Shown here: one piece after another, positions 9,831-62,693 of the stretch
Layout of the letters: each line of letters begins with the position of its first letter
Position numbering within the stretch: the stretch's first letter is position 1
Notes under the pieces: generated by a model
Told to the model about the DNA's origin: nothing
What the model saw: only the letters and a program-made list of their open reading frames with translations
The model's database searches: none
Program-made: the position numbers and the translations under genes
Source: Octopus vulgaris
Taxonomy: Eukaryota
Assembly (NCBI GenBank): GCA_951406725.2
Contig: OX597816.1
Location: 162,936,001-163,000,000 of the forward strand
DNA length: 64,000 nt
Direction: 5' to 3'

Positions 9831-9874
<44 letters not shown>

Positions 9875-9917
9875 GGCATGATGAGGGAAAAGTTTACTTG
9901 TAGTTAGCTGGTAGACT

Positions 9918-9971
9918 TTGGCTGAAGAGAAACAGGCACCTATTTGGCACTAATTTCGAAACTGGTACCAA
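9918..9971 (+). ncRNA. Minimal type I hammerhead ribozyme motif (cassette A)
   Basis: ttgg-CTGAAGA-GAAA...TTTC-GAAAC-tg-GTA-ccaa. Confidence 0.7.
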
Positions 9972-10132
9972 GTTGAGCAGTATTACGTGTGCTGACCAAC
10001 TAGAGGTAACACGTTTTTAATGTTCACTGGGATATTTTCCTACCATGCCTGTAGAAGATTTGTGACTACCCTGCGGCACAAAAGTATTTTTGAATTGTAT
10101 TTTTAGCGATGTAGGTGCTCATGTAGTGCCTT

Positions 10133-10186
<54 letters not shown>

Positions 10187-10201
10187 TAACATTTGTACTT
10201 T

Positions 10202-10330
10202 ATAATCTCTGACGAAGACTAGAGATATATACAAGTACCTCATCTTCATCTACCTATTACCTCAATCCACTTGAATAATATAGGTAGAAAGAGGTATTTT
10301 TATCTATTGGCTGAAACAGCTGTAAGTTAT
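10202..10330 (+). ncRNA. Hammerhead motif with long stem II (cassette B), partly decayed
   Basis: ataatct-CTGACGA-~97-nt hairpin (tacctc..tctacctat / ataggtaga..gaggta)-GAAAC-agct-GTA-agttat; palindromic ACAGCTGT. Confidence 0.65.
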
Positions 10331-10756
10331 TTTAACAATTTATATTCATGTTTTTTATAATAATTACTAGTATCCTTATATATTATTATATTTTATATCT
10401 TATATCTTATATGTAAAGAATAATATGCTATACGTATGTATGTTATAATTGTCATTTTAATAAATAAATAAGTTAACATTTTAATGTCGAAAAGTTGATG
10501 AACCACCTATTGTTTTCCTCCATTTTCTTATTTGCAATATATATATAATTATAAATATTGCATTTCTAAATCTCTCAGAGAGAGTTATGCAGTGATGGTT
10601 TGTTGCCAACTTAACGTGGCAGTCCCAGGAAAGGAAAGAATGCTACTGCTATTTAGCCCCAAGAAACACCGTTTCTAGTTGGCTACGTGGCACAAGCGTT
10701 CTGTGTCCTTATGCTTTCAAACAGGGTAGATAAGCACCTCCACCCAACAAAGCCAG

Positions 10757-10809
10757 CAAGCAGAGACTAGTTTCAGGGTCATTTCCCTTCATCAGTTTCG
10801 AGTAGCTTG
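10757..10809 (-). ncRNA. Minimal hammerhead motif (cassette C)
   Basis: Minus strand CTGATGA-AGGG-aaatga-CCCT-GAAAC-ta-GTC; palindromic ACTAGT; interrupted stem I with distal caagc/gcttg. Confidence 0.72.
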
Positions 10810-10910
10810 ACCCTGCTAGCAGTTGGTGGTAAATCGATGAGAAAATTTATATAATTTCAAGTGAAATAAATTCACTGATCTACAAAATTAGAACTATTGC
10901 ATTTCTAAAT

Positions 10911-10962
<52 letters not shown>

Positions 10963-12917
10963 CATATATATATATATATAAGTAGATATCTTGTATTGTA
11001 TGTATATATTTTATTAATCTGCCTGTACAGCTGATAAATTCATTTGCCAGACGTGATAATAATTGGGTGTGTCAAGTTTCTTTAAGAGTTTACAAAAGAA
11101 TATGGTAGGCAGTTTGGTTTGACTGGTCAGTTTCTGTACTTGTTATTTATTTCCATTTGGAAGGTGTGGGTTATTAGTCGGGGATGTCATGGGGTTTTTA
11201 GTTATTTGTTTATCTTTTGATTTGATATTCAGAAAAGAATGTGGGTTGGTATAAAGTTTGTTGGTCTGCATGTTTCTCTTTAGGGGTTTGTTGCTCTATA
11301 AACAGTTTGGTTAATATGAAATTGTAACCTTTGTATTTTATGGAGGTAGAATTTGTAGACTATACGTTTATGAATGTTTCTTTAATTCTGTTTCCAGCTA
11401 TCCCCAAATTTTTATCAAAATATGTAGTAAAGAACATTTCTCTAAGACTTTCCTCTTTATCTTCAAATGAAAAATTTCTAAATAAAATAGATTTGCTTTG
11501 CATTTTCTTTTTCTTTTATGTCACTTACCTGAGCAAATCCTTGATGACACATTTCCTGCTTAATCACTGTTCTGCTGTCCTTGGTAAAGATAAGGGGTAC
11601 GAGGTAGGACAGTGGATTGAATTATAAATCTATGACGTCTCACTTCTGTTGGAAACACCATTATAGTGTCCGTCTTACATCGCATATCTTTCCCTAAGAT
11701 CCTAATATTTCACGTTCTTCTTTTCAAGTGTTTACTCAATATTGCCTTTGCACAGGACAGAGAACCTAACATTCATCTCAGATTCTTGTCGTATGAGATC
11801 CTGTCGTAGAAACAAGGCCTTGTTCGGTTATTGCAATATGGCTAGCAAACAAGAACACATCCTTCAGCTTTACATGAAACTTAGATATCTTACCACCTTG
11901 TAGAGGTTCGGTAACAACTGTTCTTTATTTACGTTCCTGCGTTGACTTTACTTACTATCTTTACTGGAAACAGAAGGGGCCAATTTTGAGTTCTTTGTCA
12001 TTTCATTGCTGTTACTCCTTGTTGTTTAAACGCGTCATCTAAAACAGTCAATACTGTAATACTGTCTGATATCCTGCGACGGATACCCTTTTAATAACTC
12101 CCAACTGTGATACATTACAACTACAAACTTATCTAATATTCCTCCTTCTCCCCCTCATCATCATCATCGCCGCCGCCGTCGTCGTCATCGTCATCGTTGT
12201 CATCATGATCATCATCACCATCATGATCATCATCATGATCATCATCATGATCATACTTATGATCATCATGATCATCATCGTCATCAGCAGCAGCAGCAGC
12301 GGGATCGCCATGATGATGATCATTCCCATGATGATAATCCACATCATGATGATGATGATCATCATCAATGCATGGCCATTAAAGTTTCGAGCCGTGGGAC
12401 TCTCAGGATCAGTCGCCAGTTACTATGGCGTATTCGTGGCCGAGATTAATCAAGTACATCACAAAGTAACCCATTTTACAGCTGAGGGCAGTAGAGCAAT
12501 GTGAAATGAACTGTTTTGGACAAGATCACAAGGTCCCTCTCTTTCGGGAATCGAAAACGTATGATGCTACAATCAAGATCGAAAGTTAGATATACTAACC
12601 AATAAGCCGAGTCTTCAATATCGCCCAATATTGGTCGCATTCTAATTCTGTATAATTTAGAATTAATCTAAATATTTTTGGAGATCTGAAGATTAAGACA
12701 TCAATAGATCTCTGTTCTATTTCTTCGAAAACATCGAACCGATTTTACGAATACCATTGACAATTCTGTCAACAAAAACCTTAATTTATTTGTGCTATAT
12801 ATTTTTTCATTATTTCATATTGATTATTGGTATTGACATTCGCTTTTATATACTACTCTCGCTGTCACCTAACTCAAATATATGTACATATGCATATGGA
12901 TATACATATACTACATA

Positions 12918-14472: not shown

Positions 14473-16441
14473 TTAATTACACTTGACAGAAGGTTTGATA
14501 GGAATATTCCACCAGCATTCCTTGAGTTGGTGTGTATGAATGTATTCCATAACAGAGGGATTTATTTCAGGACAGTATTTTTTGTGGATGGCATTGTAAA
14601 TTGTTTTAGCAACAACATCGTGCTGCATAGGGAGGTAGTACCGTGACGATATTTTAGGACAGCTGCTAATCACATGCGTAATGTCTTCCACAGAAACATG
14701 ACATATCCTGCACATGCGGTTGCACCTTAGGATTACAAGAGTGTCATTGTCTCTCTTGTTCATCAGGTACTTTGTGGCAATCTCCTCTTCCTGGATTGCA
14801 AACGCATAGCCTTCAAGGTGTGATGTGATGTAGTGGTCTTATGAGACAACTACATCATAAGACCAAGAAATGTAGATTCAGTATTAAATATATTTATTTA
14901 GGTAAGAGAGGCTGCGCTTCATCTCAGTTCAACCGTCTTTTTCTAGCTCCCGGGCGACATACCCATGCATAGTCTTTTTTTTTTTTGGTTTTTGTATGCT
15001 GAGTACTTTCTATCCAGGTCTTCTCTAGGGTAAGAAGAGAGCCCAACTGTTTTGAGGCTGTATAAGAAAGAGACCATCAGGAAGAGAGTGCTTCTTGAGG
15101 AGCTCACTGCCAACTCGAACAATGTTGCTCATTTCACTTTTCAGGACTGCATTAATATATTTATTTTTGCTGCTGTTGTTTAGTAGATGCTGCTTGAATG
15201 ATACCATATGGCATTCGAAGGCTCCTACCACTTTCATTTCTTCTTAGGTAGAACATTTCAACATCACTGTTTTCCTAGTTGTTGTCAAAATTTTGTGGGT
15301 TTTGATACCTAAAGAGTAGATTTCCTCTACAGCCCAATCAAATGTTGGGATCAGCACTGATACTGCAAATGCATTGTGGGATATTGTTTTGTTGTAAGAG
15401 GAGAGTTCCGTCTGCCATGTTTTTCTAAGTGTGGTGTAATATTCTCGGGTCACTCTATCTTTATTCACAGTGCCTTCATATGATACGTTTTCGTCTATTC
15501 CAAGGTACTTGTAACATTCTTTGTGTAGAATGGAGGAGATAGAGAGACCGTTGATGCATAGGTTTTGCGTCTGGAGGACTGACTTACCTCGTTCTATAAC
15601 CAAATATGAACATTTCTTTTGGCCAAATTCCATGCCAAGATCAGCTGAAAATGTTTTTAATTCCATTTGTTTTATGGCATTAATCTTCAGGTCGTCTACA
15701 AAGAAATTATGAGTTTCATTGGTCTTGTTAGCAGTCGAAGATCCAAGTATGTAACCATTTGTTTTCTGCGGAAGGAATGATAATGGATTCAGTGCCAAAA
15801 TGAAAAGAAGTACATAAAGACTATCTCCCTGGAATATTCCCTTTGAAATGCCTTTAGTATTAGAAAAATCATTCTGTTCTCAGTTGTAAGGGTAAGAATA
15901 GTTGTTCATATCTTAGTGGGTTTCTCTATAGCAACAATTATGTTAGTAGGTACCTTTGCCATATATAGGCACTTCAACAGCCATAAATGAGGGATAGAGT
16001 CGAATACCTTCTTATAGTCAAGCCATACTGTCGCAAAGTTTCTGCCTTGTTTTCTTTCTTCAGACTGTACAACTTTGTTTATTAAAATTTGTTCGGCACA
16101 TCCCCACACTCCATTCTTTCCACCAGCCTCTTCATCAGTCACAATGTTGCTCGACTGGAAGAACTGGTTAAGGCAACTTTTGTACAGCTTGTACATAATG
16201 TTTAGCCAAGCAATGGGCCTGTAGTTTCCTGCATACATATCAATTCTTTTCTATAAATTGTCAGCTTCTTGTACCAATATCCAACTATTAGACCCCTTCC
16301 ATGTGTCTTTCCATTCTGCAGTTTGCTTGCTGCTATAGCGAAGGTTTCTGCATCAATTTTGTATGTTTTACTATTAGTGTAGGTACAGTAATCTTTCTCA
16401 ATTGTATTCAACCATGATGCATTCAGGTTGAAATTCCTCAT
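14473..16441 (-). mobile_element. Decayed R4/Dong-clade (RLE-type) non-LTR retrotransposon: RT + CCHC knuckle, multiple frameshifts
   Basis: Broken ORFs NYRPIAWLN, WLDYKKVFDSIPH, GIFQGDSL, FFVDDLK, YKYLG, CRIC..EDITHVISSC..HDVVA, WWNIPIK. Confidence 0.88.
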
Positions 16442-19886: not shown

Positions 19887-20303
19887 AGGCGGCGAGCTGG
19901 CAGCAACGTTAGCACGTCGGGAGAAAAGCTTAGCGGTATTTCGTCTGTCGTTACGTTCTGCGTTCAAATTCCGCTGAGGTCGACTTTGCCTTTTATCCTT
20001 TCGGGGTCAATAAATCAAGTACCAGTCACGCACTGGGGTCGATGTAATCGACTTAATCCGTTTGTCTGTCCTTGTTTGTCCCCTCTATGTTTTTGCCCCC
20101 TGTGGGTAATAAGGAAATAGGGATTTCGTCTGCCCTTACGTTCTGAGTTCAAATTCCGCCGAGGTCGACTTTGCCTTTTATCCTTTCGGGGTCGATTAAA
20201 TAAGTACCAGTTGCGCACTGGGGTTGATATAATCGACTTAATCTGTTTGTCTGTCCTTGTTTGTCCTCTCTGTGTTTAGCCCCTTGTGTGTAGTAAAGAA
20301 ATA
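19887..20303 (+). mobile_element. tRNA-derived SINE family B, partial-tandem dimer with TSD
   Basis: aggcggcgagctggcag..gttcaaattcc; second unit restarts at atttcgtctgcc; TSD ggtattatgc(t/g)cta at 19871 and 20304. Confidence 0.85.
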
Positions 20304-20699
20304 GGTATTATGCGCTATTAACTTTTGAAAGCACTTCGAAATTAACGCTTTCTCTCCTCGAACCAGCAGAAAATTCACGGAGAGTAATATTTATACAAAA
20401 AATACTTAAACCTATGCATACAAGCTACTGATAATTGCATTCTTTTGCATAAACCTATATTGCCTTGGGCAAATTTCTTAATATTCTCATTTCCACGGCA
20501 AGCCACGAGTAGGAAGCTATCCGATGCTATTCTGTAATTAACACACGTTGTTGCATCAAAGAGCAGGTGGTGTACAGTAAGATATACATATATATCAAAA
20601 GGATGTGTTATAACACTATTCTACATATACAAAAACAGTCATACCAACAATCCGACATACCCCTATTATCAGCTGCCCCACGGATATCATTATGGTTTC

Positions 20700-21298: not shown

Positions 21299-21714
21299 TA
21301 TTTCTTTATTGCCCACAAGGGGCTAAACATAGAGGGGACGAACAAAGACAGACAAAGGGATTAAGTCGATTACATCAACCCCAGAGCGTAACAGGTACTT
21401 TATTTATCGACCCTGAAAGGATGAAAGGCAAAGTCGACCTCGCGGAATTTGAACTCAGAACGTAACGGCAGACGAAATACCTATTTCTATACTACCCACA
21501 AGAGGCTAAACACAGAGGGGGCAAACAAGGACAGACAAACAGATTAAGTCGATTATATCGACCCCAGTGCGCAACTGGCACTTCATTTATCGACCCCGAA
21601 AGGTTGAAAGGCATAGTCGACCTCGGCGGAATTTGAACTCTGAACGTAGCCGCAGACGAAATACGGCTACACATTTCGCCCGACGTGCTAACGTTTCTAC
21701 CAGCTCGCCGCCTT
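21299..21714 (-). mobile_element. SINE family B, partial-tandem dimer with TSD
   Basis: Same dimer junction as 19887; 19-bp TSD tagctacatatacatatat at 21279 and 21716. Confidence 0.85.
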
Positions 21715-35821: not shown

Positions 35822-35880
<59 letters not shown>

Positions 35881-35921
35881 GAAAGAATGGAGTTGAACGA
35901 CGAATTAACAAAATTCCTTTA

Positions 35922-36004
35922 TTCTCGACATATGTTTCGAAGGCTTCATATTCCTAATTTCGAGGGAATAAGGGGTGCATTATGCCGCCTTCTCATCAGG
36001 AAAA
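35922..36004 (-). ncRNA. Canonical-core minimal type I hammerhead ribozyme
   Basis: Minus strand ttttc-CTGATGA-GAAGGC...GCCTTC-GAAAC-atat-GTC-gagaa; all core nucleotides intact; palindromic ACATATGT. Confidence 0.85.
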
Positions 36005-36143
36005 ACAACACACAAATTTCCACACGAAAGCACGTGATCTCTGCCCTTGGCATGTAGCTTCAACCGTGTTTTTCTGACGTGAATTTGCTACCCAGGTATC
36101 GGTTAACCGAATTATCCATAATAAGATAATTCATTCAACTACT

Positions 36144-36179
<36 letters not shown>

Positions 36180-58749: not shown

Positions 58750-58960
58750 TAGACATATACATATATACATATAAATACACACTCACTTATATAATACACA
58801 TACATATATATATATGTCCAACTAAGTCGGACATTGGCCGACTTAGTAAATCTATCCTGGATACTGTTCTACCCCAATAACCCCTCTTCTCCCCTTAAAC
58901 CTATGGCTAAGTACGGACGAAGTTCTAAAATGGTTTAACTCTCTAACTAATACTAGTAGT

Positions 58961-61072
58961 ATGTCCTTTATTCAGTTCGATATTAATAGTTATTACTATA
59001 GTATTTCCCCTATCTTACTCAACAAATCACTAATATTTGCCATGAATCGCTCCCTCATATCTAGAGAAGAAATCAATATTGTGCTACTAGCTAGGAAGAC
59101 ATTTATAGAATTTGAAGATAAATTATGGACTAGAGCAGATACACCTAATTATTTTGATATACCAATGGGTTCCAGTGATTCGGCTGAGGTAACCAACCTA
59201 GTAGGCACATATCTATTAAAATGCATAAGCAAGGATATCCCAGAAATACAGGGGGGTCTATATAGGGATGATGCTCTGTTTGTTATCCCTAGTAATAATA
59301 AATCTGTTATAGAAAGGATTAGAAAGAAAATTAATAAGTTCTTTAAGGATTTCAACCTCAGTATAACGTATGAACCGGGCACTAAAATAGTTAACTTCCT
59401 AGATATTACGCTAGACCTTAACTCCAAGCTGCATTACCCATTTAGAAAGGAAGGCGAAATCACGAATTACGTAAATAAATTATCAAATCATCCCCCAAAT
59501 ATAATTGAATCTTTAGTAAGAAATATTTCATTAAGAATTTCAAAATTATCATCCAATAAGGATATATTTAACTCCCATTCTGAGCATTATAATGCGGCGT
59601 TAACTAAGGCTGGATACAACCAAAAGATTACATTCGTTGATAAGGAGAACTCACGTATTCCTAATAAGGAAGTTATCAGTAATCACGTTAGCAGCAATAT
59701 AGACCAAGCCCGAAATATAAGTAGAATTAAATTAACGGTAAACGCTAATCTAACGTACAGTCCCAACAATTCAAATAGAAGCATTGACCAGAACATAGGT
59801 AACTCGGATAATATCGAAGTAGATAAACCAAAGATGCACACAAATAAAAATAAAAATAATGGTAATAAATACAATAGCTCCGGTGAGATGAATAGTAATA
59901 ATTCCACGAACCCTAAATTTAATAAAAAAGGTATAATATGGCTGAATATTCCTTTCAACTGTGCGATACAATCGGATATACAGAACAAATTCAAAGTAAT
60001 TCTGGAAAAAAATTTCCCAATCTCTCATAGATATCATAGAATTATTTCTAGGAAAACAGTTAGGATTTCTTATTCAACCCTCCCAAATATGTCCACTTTA
60101 ATAGCTAAGATTAATAATAACAACATTAAACTAGCCAGGAAAAATAGAAATAAAAATAATAATATCAGCATGAATACCAATAGCAATTATAATATTACTA
60201 CCAACAATAAAAACAGCAATAGTAACTATCAAAACATGGGTGAAATTAGTTACCACAGAATGACTAATAACATTAACATTAATAGTAATAATAACAATAC
60301 CGATATTAATAGAAGTAATAATGTTAATAATAGAAATAATAGAAATAAGGCTAATGGAGAAAATAAGGAGAATGAAAATATCAGTGATATCTATAGCAAC
60401 AATATGCAGTCGGATAAAAAGACTAACAATAATAGTAAAATTACCAATAATATAAGAAATCATGGTAGGACTTTAGACCTAAAAGATGAAACAGAAGGAT
60501 CAATAAATAATAGCAATACTTTAGATATCAGCACCAACTATAGAAATATTAATAACAATAAGGACAATTATACTCATGATAATCAAAATAATAGGAACCT
60601 AAGACATCTACCCAAGAATAATCCAAAACCTGAAGTTGTTCCTCCTGTGTGTAAGTGTAGAATAAAATCAAAATGCCCGGCACCTGGTCTATGCGGGGAA
60701 AATAATGTAATCTATAAATGTACCATATCCACGGAGAATAACAAATATTTTTACATTGGATGTACAATTAATTTTCTAGCCAGAGTTAGAAATCACATCT
60801 CGTCTTTTAAATTACGTCATAAAGCTGGTACCACCACACTTTCAAACAAAATCTGGGAACTCAAAAATAATAATAATAATTACAACCTTAATTGGGAAAT
60901 AGTTAGGAGAGCAATTCCGTATAAAAATAGCAGGGTTGGTTGCCAACTATGCTCCATGGAGACGTATGAAATTCTAAAGCATAGAAAACATAGAAACTTA
61001 TTGAATAACCATATCGAACTAGGTCAAGTTTGTGTCCACGCTAAATTGAAGACTTTAAAATATTTTAAATGA
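58961..61072 (+). CDS. Penelope-like RT (C-terminal part) + Asn-rich linker + GIY-YIG endonuclease; N-truncated, ATG not the native start
   Basis: RT motifs FIQFDINSYY, PMGSSDSAE, GLYRDD, NFLDITLDL, YVNKLSNHPP; Cys motif CKC-x5-CP-x2-GLC; VIY...YIG; R-x2-NH; CQLC; LLN...CVH. Confidence 0.88.
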   Translation: MSFIQFDINSYYYSISPILLNKSLIFAMNRSLISREEINIVLLARKTFIEFEDKLWTRADTPNYFDIPMGSSDSAEVTNLVGTYLLKCISKDIPEIQGGLYRDDALFVIPSNNKSVIERIRKKINKFFKDFNLSITYEPGTKIVNFLDITLDLNSKLHYPFRKEGEITNYVNKLSNHPPNIIESLVRNISLRISKLSSNKDIFNSHSEHYNAALTKAGYNQKITFVDKENSRIPNKEVISNHVSSNIDQARNISRIKLTVNANLTYSPNNSNRSIDQNIGNSDNIEVDKPKMHTNKNKNNGNKYNSSGEMNSNNSTNPKFNKKGIIWLNIPFNCAIQSDIQNKFKVILEKNFPISHRYHRIISRKTVRISYSTLPNMSTLIAKINNNNIKLARKNRNKNNNISMNTNSNYNITTNNKNSNSNYQNMGEISYHRMTNNININSNNNNTDINRSNNVNNRNNRNKANGENKENENISDIYSNNMQSDKKTNNNSKITNNIRNHGRTLDLKDETEGSINNSNTLDISTNYRNINNNKDNYTHDNQNNRNLRHLPKNNPKPEVVPPVCKCRIKSKCPAPGLCGENNVIYKCTISTENNKYFYIGCTINFLARVRNHISSFKLRHKAGTTTLSNKIWELKNNNNNYNLNWEIVRRAIPYKNSRVGCQLCSMETYEILKHRKHRNLLNNHIELGQVCVHAKLKTLKYFK

Positions 61073-62130
61073 TTAGAATATTCGTAACTAGATAGATAGA
61101 TAGATAGATATAACTTGATTTTTACTAGTATAGCACTGCTTTAAGTAGATAACTAAGAGTTCTCACACTACAGTTATCTTTTTCCTTATATCTGCATCAG
61201 TTTTTTTGAGAACAGGGAAATGAATAGTACTTATACGCTGCTTAATTGAGGCTTTATTTAATTTCAAACTCATAATTTTAAATTTTTAAATCTTAATTTT
61301 AAATCTTAATTTTAATTTTTAATTTTAATTCTTAACTTAATCTAATTTAAGTAGCATAACTTTAATAAAATAAAATGAGTTACTAAAGCCCCATAATTCT
61401 ATTTCAAAATTAAATAAATAAGGCTACTCCCTCGGTGATAATATGATTATCTTCATTATGATAGACAATTCCCTAACACCTTGTAAATGATCTTCTAAGA
61501 TTTGACCTGTAGTCCGTCAATGTATGAATAATAACGGCAACTCCTTAAGACAGTAAAATGAATAAAATAAATAAATAAATTTTAATGACTTTTTGATAAG
61601 ATTATACTTAGATTTTCCTAATGTATTTTCTTTTGATTTTAGCCTTTGACCACTAAACCCCTAAACCCCTGACCGTGTTATATCTTTAGATTCTCTTTAA
61701 ATTCATAGCTGCTTTCGACAGCAATAAATTAGCTGTTTTACTGGTCAAAGAATAATATTCTCCTCTAGTTCCTAGATGCCTGTAAATTAAAACCAGACTT
61801 GCCGTCTACTAATTCTTCTGTATAACTAGAACCCTCTTTTTTCTTTTTCTTTTTTTCTCTTTTTTTCCCTTCTTTCCCTATTTCTTTCTCTTTTCTCTTT
61901 TTTTTTCTTCTTATTTTCTTTTTCTTTTTTTCTTTTTCTTTTTCCTTTTCTCTTCTCTTCTAGCCTCCCCCTTTTGCTCCCTCCCCCTTTATTTTCTCTC
62001 TTTCCTTCTCTTTCCTTCCCTTTTCTGTTCTTTGCCTCTCCAGAAAGCCCTTCAGCCTTTAAAAGTTAAATAGCTACAGTCTCTTGAAAATAGCAGTAAT
62101 GTGATTAATGTGGCAAATACCTAATCATAT

Positions 62131-62423
62131 AGCAAGAATTGATACCCACCTCATTGTGTTCAACCCTTGATAAATTTATCGCCTGTGAATATGAAATTCC
62201 TCTTCATTTCTCTGGAAATTTACATCTACACCATTGGAAATTGTGCATCTATACAAAGGATTAATTCACCCTCTCTGTAATGCTAATAAGCAGGAATTGA
62301 AACCCACCTCGTTGTGATTAGCAATGGATAAATTTGTCGTCTGTGAGTATGTAATCCCTCTTCATATCTCTGGAAATTCATATGTACACTATGGATTAAG
62401 TCACTTTCTCTGTGATGCTATTA
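62131..62423 (+). repeat. Two diverged tandem copies (~157 and ~135 bp) in the PLE 3' region
   Basis: agca(a/g)gaattga(t/a)acccacctc...ctctggaaatt...ctctgt(a/g)atgcta at 62131 and 62289. Confidence 0.8.
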
Positions 62424-62571
62424 AAACTTTTTTTAAAATTCTGTGATAAGACTGTACATCATCTTTAAAGAACTTTAATGAACTTTGGAAATCTGTTTAT
62501 GTTACTTAATTATCTACATTACTTCATGAGTATAGCCTCAACCACTAGGATGTCTAGAGAACTCACATGTA

Positions 62572-62662
62572 TTTTAGCTGATGAGTACGGGACACGTTTA
62601 TATGCTGCAATTTTTGCAACTTTTAATAAAGCCTGTCCTTGTATGAAACGATTGTACTAAAA
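62572..62662 (+). ncRNA. Type I hammerhead ribozyme motif at the 3' end of the PLE
   Basis: ttttag-CTGATGA-gtacgggaca...tgtccttgtat-GAAAC-gatt-GTA-ctaaaa: 6-bp stem I, about 10-bp stem II base with one bulge, 2-bp stem III. Confidence 0.8.
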
Positions 62663-62693
62663 ACCTATCCATTCTTGTTGCTTTTTTCTCGCG

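Follow-up and report, generated by a model that had tools for sequence, protein, structure and literature searches.

The three hammerhead-ribozyme units found between positions 9872 and 11064 of the 64,000-nucleotide stretch of Octopus vulgaris DNA analysed here (the window) very probably arose from a single decayed copy of one repeat, family 1, to which members of two further families, family 3 and family 2, were added one after another by target-primed reverse transcription of the Penelope-like element (PLE) type at TA-rich DNA. In the initial annotation, these units were described as three cassettes standing side by side in a TA tract; the segment at 10981–11064 shows nesting in a copy of the first unit instead. 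Judged by its sequence, the whole of 9872–11064 is one family-1 copy that holds units 2 and 3 at an internal TA-rich site. As a locus, this is a nested insertion of an ordinary kind.

The family-1 copy begins at a (TA)n run (9833–9871) that marks its 5′-truncated end; most other copies reach further 5′. Its body (unit 1, 9872–10135, + strand) is the 5′-truncated part of a putative non-LTR retrozyme monomer of 447 bp, and is followed by the left half of the expanded internal TA site (10136–10182). Unit 2 (10183–10537, + strand) is a 5′-truncated piece that stops at the inner of two 3′ ends used by family 2. It meets unit 3 tail to tail, with (TA)5 at 10538–10547 between the two 3′ ends. Unit 3 (10547–10915), which lies on the opposite (−) strand to units 1 and 2, consists of one putative retrozyme monomer of the 356-bp type and a 29-nt terminal repeat (10547–10575 and 10886–10914, self-match 93 %). 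The right half of the internal TA site (10916–10980) then leads into the tail of unit 1 (10981–11064, + strand), which matches the segment downstream of the body in other family-1 loci.

Because 10981–11064 is the part that unit 1 is missing, units 2 and 3 are placed within a unit-1 copy. Of 27 other family-1 loci, 15 carry this segment, at 74–91 % identity, and repeat-like read depth persists to 11076. The spacer between body and tail is 7 nt in four family-1 loci and an expanded microsatellite in most others. In three of the 15 other copies that keep the tail, the same internal site is filled by a foreign insert, giving a spacer of 338–416 nt. One of these inserts is an unknown element (L013), another is related to family 3 (L015), and the third (L016) is presumably SINE-like. 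In the tandem array L182 the internal site is only an imperfect TA-like run; expansion after insertion does therefore occur. The three units are without mutual homology, as had been reported (best cross-unit blastn E of at least 0.57), and the TA runs that separate them were likewise confirmed. No other of the 40 scored candidates spans the junction of units 2 and 3. With the junction unique among these, units 2 and 3 did not spread together as one composite.

A script scan for a CUGANGA...GAAA...UH core with a palindromic stem III found three type I hammerhead cores at the locus and five in the window, compared with a mean of 0.025 and a maximum of one in 40 local dinucleotide shuffles. The claim of one core per unit was therefore confirmed for all three, the positions first given for them being those of stem I ends. 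The two further motifs are at 35999 (− strand) and 62578 (+ strand). All five have a short palindromic stem III, which marks dimer-dependent minimal hammerheads (PMC4209133). Based on core, stems, and palindromic stem III, the three motifs at the locus appear to be real minimal hammerheads of type I.

In unit 1, the minimal type I hammerhead (9918–9971, + strand) has the core CTGAAGA at 9922–9928, a stem I of 4 bp, stem II at 9929–9957, and a 6-nt stem III palindrome (9961–9966) with one change from the family majority. Four of four stem I pairs and four of four basal stem II pairs are kept, and the motif scan predicts the cut after 9967. The hammerhead of unit 2 (10202–10330, + strand; core CTGACGA, 10209–10215) has a stem II domain of 97 nt with one broken pair, a perfect 8-nt palindrome (10316–10323), and a predicted cut after 10324. 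In unit 3 (10760–10800, − strand; core CTGATGA, 10795–10789), stem II is 4 bp, the palindrome is at 10771–10766, and the cut is predicted after 10765; stem I is decayed, with two of the five pairs of the family majority. In the initial annotation, a hammerhead search was proposed; a search of Rfam returned no match at the gathering threshold for any of the five window motifs. When the locus was searched at E ≤ 10 there was no hammerhead either, only chance matches to TA hairpins. The motif at 35999 belongs to a fourth hammerhead family (35878–36146, − strand), which lies between two TA runs and has its predicted cut after 35927. Three pieces of this family were present in the 600 kb of genome sampled, and it is a neighbour in L015 at 96–98 % identity.

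Each cassette proved to be multi-copy, not single-copy, when its copy number was checked as had been suggested. Genome searches gave at least 47 matches for family 1 (450 candidates), at least 42 for family 2 (2536 candidates), and at least 75 for family 3 (2924 candidates), 40 being scored for each. Exact patterns of the intact core had 87 matches in family 1 and 84 in family 3, and reversed controls had none. The window copies are 90.5 % (unit 1), 96.1 % (unit 2), and 93.2 % (unit 3) identical to their family majorities, each of which carries a complete hammerhead. Two rows (L012 and L022) were dropped as overlaps or duplicates of L002 and L019, and L015 and L029 were dropped from alignment A2. 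Conservation in core columns, compared with the rest, was 0.96 against 0.90, 0.99 against 0.94, and 0.97 against 0.91 for the three families. Pairing was retained in 91 % of paired cells in family 1 and 87 % in family 3, versus at most 55 % with slid partners; covariation in these two families was not above column shuffles. For one family-3 stem II pair, a hand tally of 84 matches gave A-U in 49, G-C in 7, G-U in 6, A-C in 9, and other combinations in 13. The A-U/G-C swap between sublineages (Fisher P 0.007) is a single lineage-level change.

Animal non-LTR retrozymes are non-coding tandem repeats with type I hammerheads (PMC7229834). Family 1 forms such a tandem in L182, with 2.4 units of 447 bp, 91 % matches, both cores intact, and no frame over 90 aa in the array. 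Family 3 is in tandem in L073 with a period of 356 bp and both cores mutated; no dimer with two intact cores was present among the 84 exact-core matches. There is no frame of 120 aa over units 1–3. Because families 1 and 3 are non-coding, LTR-free, head-to-tail repeats that carry type I hammerheads, both are, as far as their sequences indicate, probably non-LTR retrozymes. A sister of family 3 that has the 3′ end of family 3 was seen in L057 (2076–2436), L174, and L015. In L057, only (TA)n lies between this sister and the 3′ end of a family-2 copy, the same tail-to-tail arrangement as at the locus.

Family 2 is at least 1.5 kb long and AT-rich, with one hammerhead approximately 400 nt from its end. 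No head-to-tail repeats were found in 30 + 25 + 5 loci, and no ORF was found in the copies examined. It is possibly PLE-derived on account of this length, composition, and lack of tandems or ORF, and unit 2 may therefore have been severed from the 3′ part of an autonomous PLE, not be a member of a non-autonomous family. Under this alternative, unit 2, and possibly more, would be a 5′-truncated 3′ UTR or pseudo-LTR, and the autonomous PLE it belonged to would have moved it in cis. The chance of this is put a little short of even, and the nesting would be unchanged. The PLEs at 58815 of the window and on contig C30 resemble family 2 in having a long, AT-rich 3′ region that contains one hammerhead, which favours this alternative. 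However, no same-sense reverse transcriptase (RT) or endonuclease frame lies upstream in the five longest copies fetched, and an origin as a PLE end is inapplicable to families 1 and 3, with their tandem units without an ORF. The PLE that stands beside two long family-2 copies on C30 was considered as the parent and rejected, as it is inverted and has its own, different hammerhead. In L176, L178, and L181, all on C30, a decayed PLE with its own hammerhead is head to head with a family-2 piece. On C30 there are five matches to this piece, which may be segmental duplicates.

The ends of the copies support the preferred reading, insertion by a PLE-type mechanism, since they show fixed or alternative 3′ ends, 5′ truncation, inverted 5′ pieces, and TA-biased junctions, all of which are PLE-type marks. 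The 3′ end of family 2 is sharp, with (TA)4 in 21 of 25 loci and nothing common downstream, and a second, inner 3′ end is the one used by the window copy. In family 3, two 3′ ends lie approximately 60 nt apart. Inverted 5′ pieces were present in 8 of 28, 2 of 30, and 12 of 30 loci, and in 13 of 25 in a further set. Against a control of 7.2 %, (TA)4 was found at the 5′ junction of family 1 in 11 of 27 cases, at the 3′ and 5′ junctions of family 2 in 22 and 7 of 29, and at those of family 3 in 8 and 6 of 29, so that fewer than a third of the family-3 copies have TA at their ends. Target-site duplications are unreadable inside TA. An optional tail, an inverted 5′-truncated copy, and, in almost all families, (TA)n insertion are described for Hydra PLEs (PMC8557442); AT-rich cleavage and two RT start sites are described for a PLE (PMC11167929). 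The genome searches thus uphold the earlier suggestion that these are PLE-type non-coding ribozyme families, being multi-copy and having TA-biased junctions.

It had also been suggested that different families meet in (TA)n, which acts as a reusable landing pad. In 60 evenly spaced 10-kb stretches (600 kb), 10 strict hammerheads were found, and none in five shuffles; a slightly different code gives 8, and neither count leads to enrichment in the flanks. As a background density, this amounts to approximately one strict hammerhead per 60 kb; pieces of the families occur approximately once per 25 kb. In a genome this dense in hammerheads the units could be chance neighbours, the TA runs having grown later from AT-rich ends and not having been targets. 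In agreement with this, intact foreign hammerheads are not enriched near family members (3 in 246 kb, compared with 3.3–4.1 expected), and the internal site of family 1 is imperfect TA in the tandem source copy. When foreign pieces were counted by homology, decayed ones included, there were 21 in 304 kb versus 12 expected (P 0.013). Neighbours of a different family, within 120 nt or nested, numbered 9 among 108 loci versus approximately 1–3 expected, with L151 and L153 left out of the neighbour count and the window's own loci left out of some counts. This enrichment is somewhat overstated, as library entries L057 and L009 came from flanks and the background match L123 was missed; with 8 close cases instead of 9, we estimate P 0.017 at an expectation of 3.2. 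TA is, however, enriched at the variable 5′ junctions too, the same internal site has been hit in three of 15 other family-1 copies, and five of the 9 close neighbours are separated almost only by microsatellite. Chance adjacency is therefore improbable. The landing-pad idea gains modest support from the 9 neighbour cases, at a level that a shared TA preference could explain. A special mixed array does not follow from it, as the arrangement is nested, the unit 2/3 junction is unique among the scored candidates, and intact foreign hammerheads are not enriched beside family members.

At L038 (1250–1450), a hammerhead element that resembles the fourth family is nested in an internal TA run of a family-2 copy. 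In the sampled 600 kb there are at least nine hammerhead families (L091–L150), whose stem III palindromes range from 8 to 12 nt.

Somewhat doubtfully, family 1 might carry its own landing pad, a TA-like seed that expands and is then hit by PLE-driven ribozyme elements and SINEs. If this were true, retrozymes would seed the microsatellites that their helpers target, building nested ribozyme clusters. The landing-pad reading pictures this in a genome where hammerheads number in the tens of thousands and escape Rfam.

The window also contains a 5′-truncated autonomous PLE (58815–62692, + strand), with an RT and, at the C terminus, a GIY-YIG endonuclease in the frame 58850–61072, a hammerhead at 62578–62656 (+ strand), and TA at both ends. 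The RT has the YRDD motif, and a CxCX5C linker and the endonuclease motifs CxxC and CxH are present; there is a long Asn-rich insert and a 3′ region of 1.6 kb. Based on these motifs, the hammerhead, and the TA flanks, it probably belongs to the Hydra clade. An Argonauta homologue of the frame was found, homologues being mostly without a protein name, and Pfam and NCBIfam searches gave nothing for the frame. The 42 full-length matches listed agree at 99 % identity in the 3′ end of the element, and many copies of the family genome-wide keep open frames of up to approximately 980 aa at 95–98 % identity. A second PLE family, with approximately 64 % protein identity, also has many open frames.

This PLE had been proposed as the driver of the three units, a claim that was not supported. 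With 99 % identity among its copies, compared with 4–10 % divergence of units 1–3 from their majorities, the element is younger than the units, and blastn found no sequence common to it and them. It is therefore probably a model of the helper type and not the helper itself. In neither of the two PLE families examined was there a helper that shares sequence with families 1–3, so the case for mobilisation in trans comes wholly from the insertion marks. Elsewhere in the window, two frames at 14473–15879 (− strand) resemble, by eye, fragments of a non-LTR retrotransposon RT and of a zinc finger/endonuclease. At 19938–20309 and 21299–21664 there are tandem pairs of a 183–185-bp repeat, which we take to resemble a cephalopod SINE.

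In the proposed origin of the locus, family 1 would have inserted first (9.5 % from its majority), and slippage would then have expanded its imperfect TA-like internal site to (TA)n. The expanded site would have received family 3 first (6.8 %) and family 2 later (3.9 %). The order of divergence, 1, 3, 2, would make unit 2 the youngest of the three inserts, an age order that depends on majorities built from the matches most like the window copy. Each insertion would have been by target-primed reverse transcription, PLE proteins favouring TA-rich DNA, and the helper would probably have been the RT/endonuclease of a Hydra-type PLE that predates the 58815 family. In the source arrays, each hammerhead is expected to cleave in homodimers that pair by the palindromic stem III, releasing monomers. 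Poor or no cutting is predicted for the window's three single, mismatched, and partly broken copies, and the three-unit cluster is predicted to have no function as a unit.

Read-through of the two co-oriented hammerheads had been suggested to excise an RNA of approximately 357 nt. The distance between the predicted cut sites is indeed 357 nt (9968–10324). That the locus is a working mixed array, which releases this chimeric RNA in a form that could circularise and perhaps move, is nevertheless highly improbable. Both + strand cores are intact, stem I and basal stem II of unit 1 are complete, and the 8-nt palindrome of unit 2 could close a weak monomer stem III. Different families also adjoin more often than the uniform model predicts, and a PLE protein is reported to help hammerheads cleave in vitro (PMC11167929). 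These points are outweighed by the energetics and the state of the copies. A forced stem III duplex between units 1 and 2 has +3.9 kcal/mol, compared with −3.2 (unit 1), −11.1 (unit 2), and −4.8 (unit 3) kcal/mol for the forced homodimers, and hammerheads do not form in the minimum-energy folds, either of each motif by itself or of 9900–10345. The window copies are as decayed as their paralogues. Eight of nine Xenopus retrozyme homodimers are reported as showing no cleavage (10.64898/2026.07.22.740005), and single minimal hammerheads gave none in a published test (PMC4209133). The chimeric RNA is thus predicted to be unlikely: the copies have decayed, none of the other scored candidates has the unit 2/3 junction, and unit 1 cannot pair with unit 2 through their stem III palindromes.

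The 10 hammerheads in 600 kb would correspond to approximately 47,000 in the 2.8-Gb genome (Poisson 19,000–79,000), in many families; for the giant squid genome, 235 Rfam hammerheads are reported (PMC6962438). The locus is valuable as a sample of hammerhead repeat families, given that none of the window's five is found by Rfam. With many hammerhead families, and a PLE family with many open frames, this genome is a good test ground, suited to matching PLE to retrozyme and to testing insertion into existing (TA)n. The literature search found no description of cephalopod retrozyme families or of retrozymes nested in each other's microsatellites; the supplements of PMC8557442, which list families by species, may hold relatives.

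Families 1–3 therefore appear, by sequence, to be new families of an already-known repeat type. Their closest likeness is to the animal non-LTR retrozymes (Cervera and de la Pena 2020, PMC7229834; Li, Clavereau and Pollet 2026, 10.64898/2026.07.22.740005), with which families 1 and 3 have in common low-GC, non-coding monomers of a few hundred bp, one type I hammerhead per monomer, and the occurrence of both monomers and head-to-tail repeats. Those retrozymes, like the families here, are proposed to be moved by PLEs, and in vertebrates they are tied to PLE pseudo-LTRs (10.64898/2026.07.22.740005). Unlike the animal retrozymes as described in these papers, the families here carry minimal instead of canonical hammerheads, have 2–2.4 tandem units in the arrays observed, and are found here with three families nested. 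With the minimal hammerheads of PLE pseudo-LTRs (Cervera and de la Pena 2014, PMC4209133) they share a short stem I, a long stem II, predicted dimer dependence, palindromic positions 15.2–16.2 and loop 3, and the presence of many families per genome. Families 1 and 3 differ from these in being detached from any ORF. Among the Hydra-clade PLEs (Craig et al. 2021, PMC8557442), motifs and TA flanks are shared by the element at 58815, which differs in its long Asn-rich insert. Units 1–3, although they encode nothing, share the insertion marks of that clade: (TA)n insertion, tails, and 5′ inversions.
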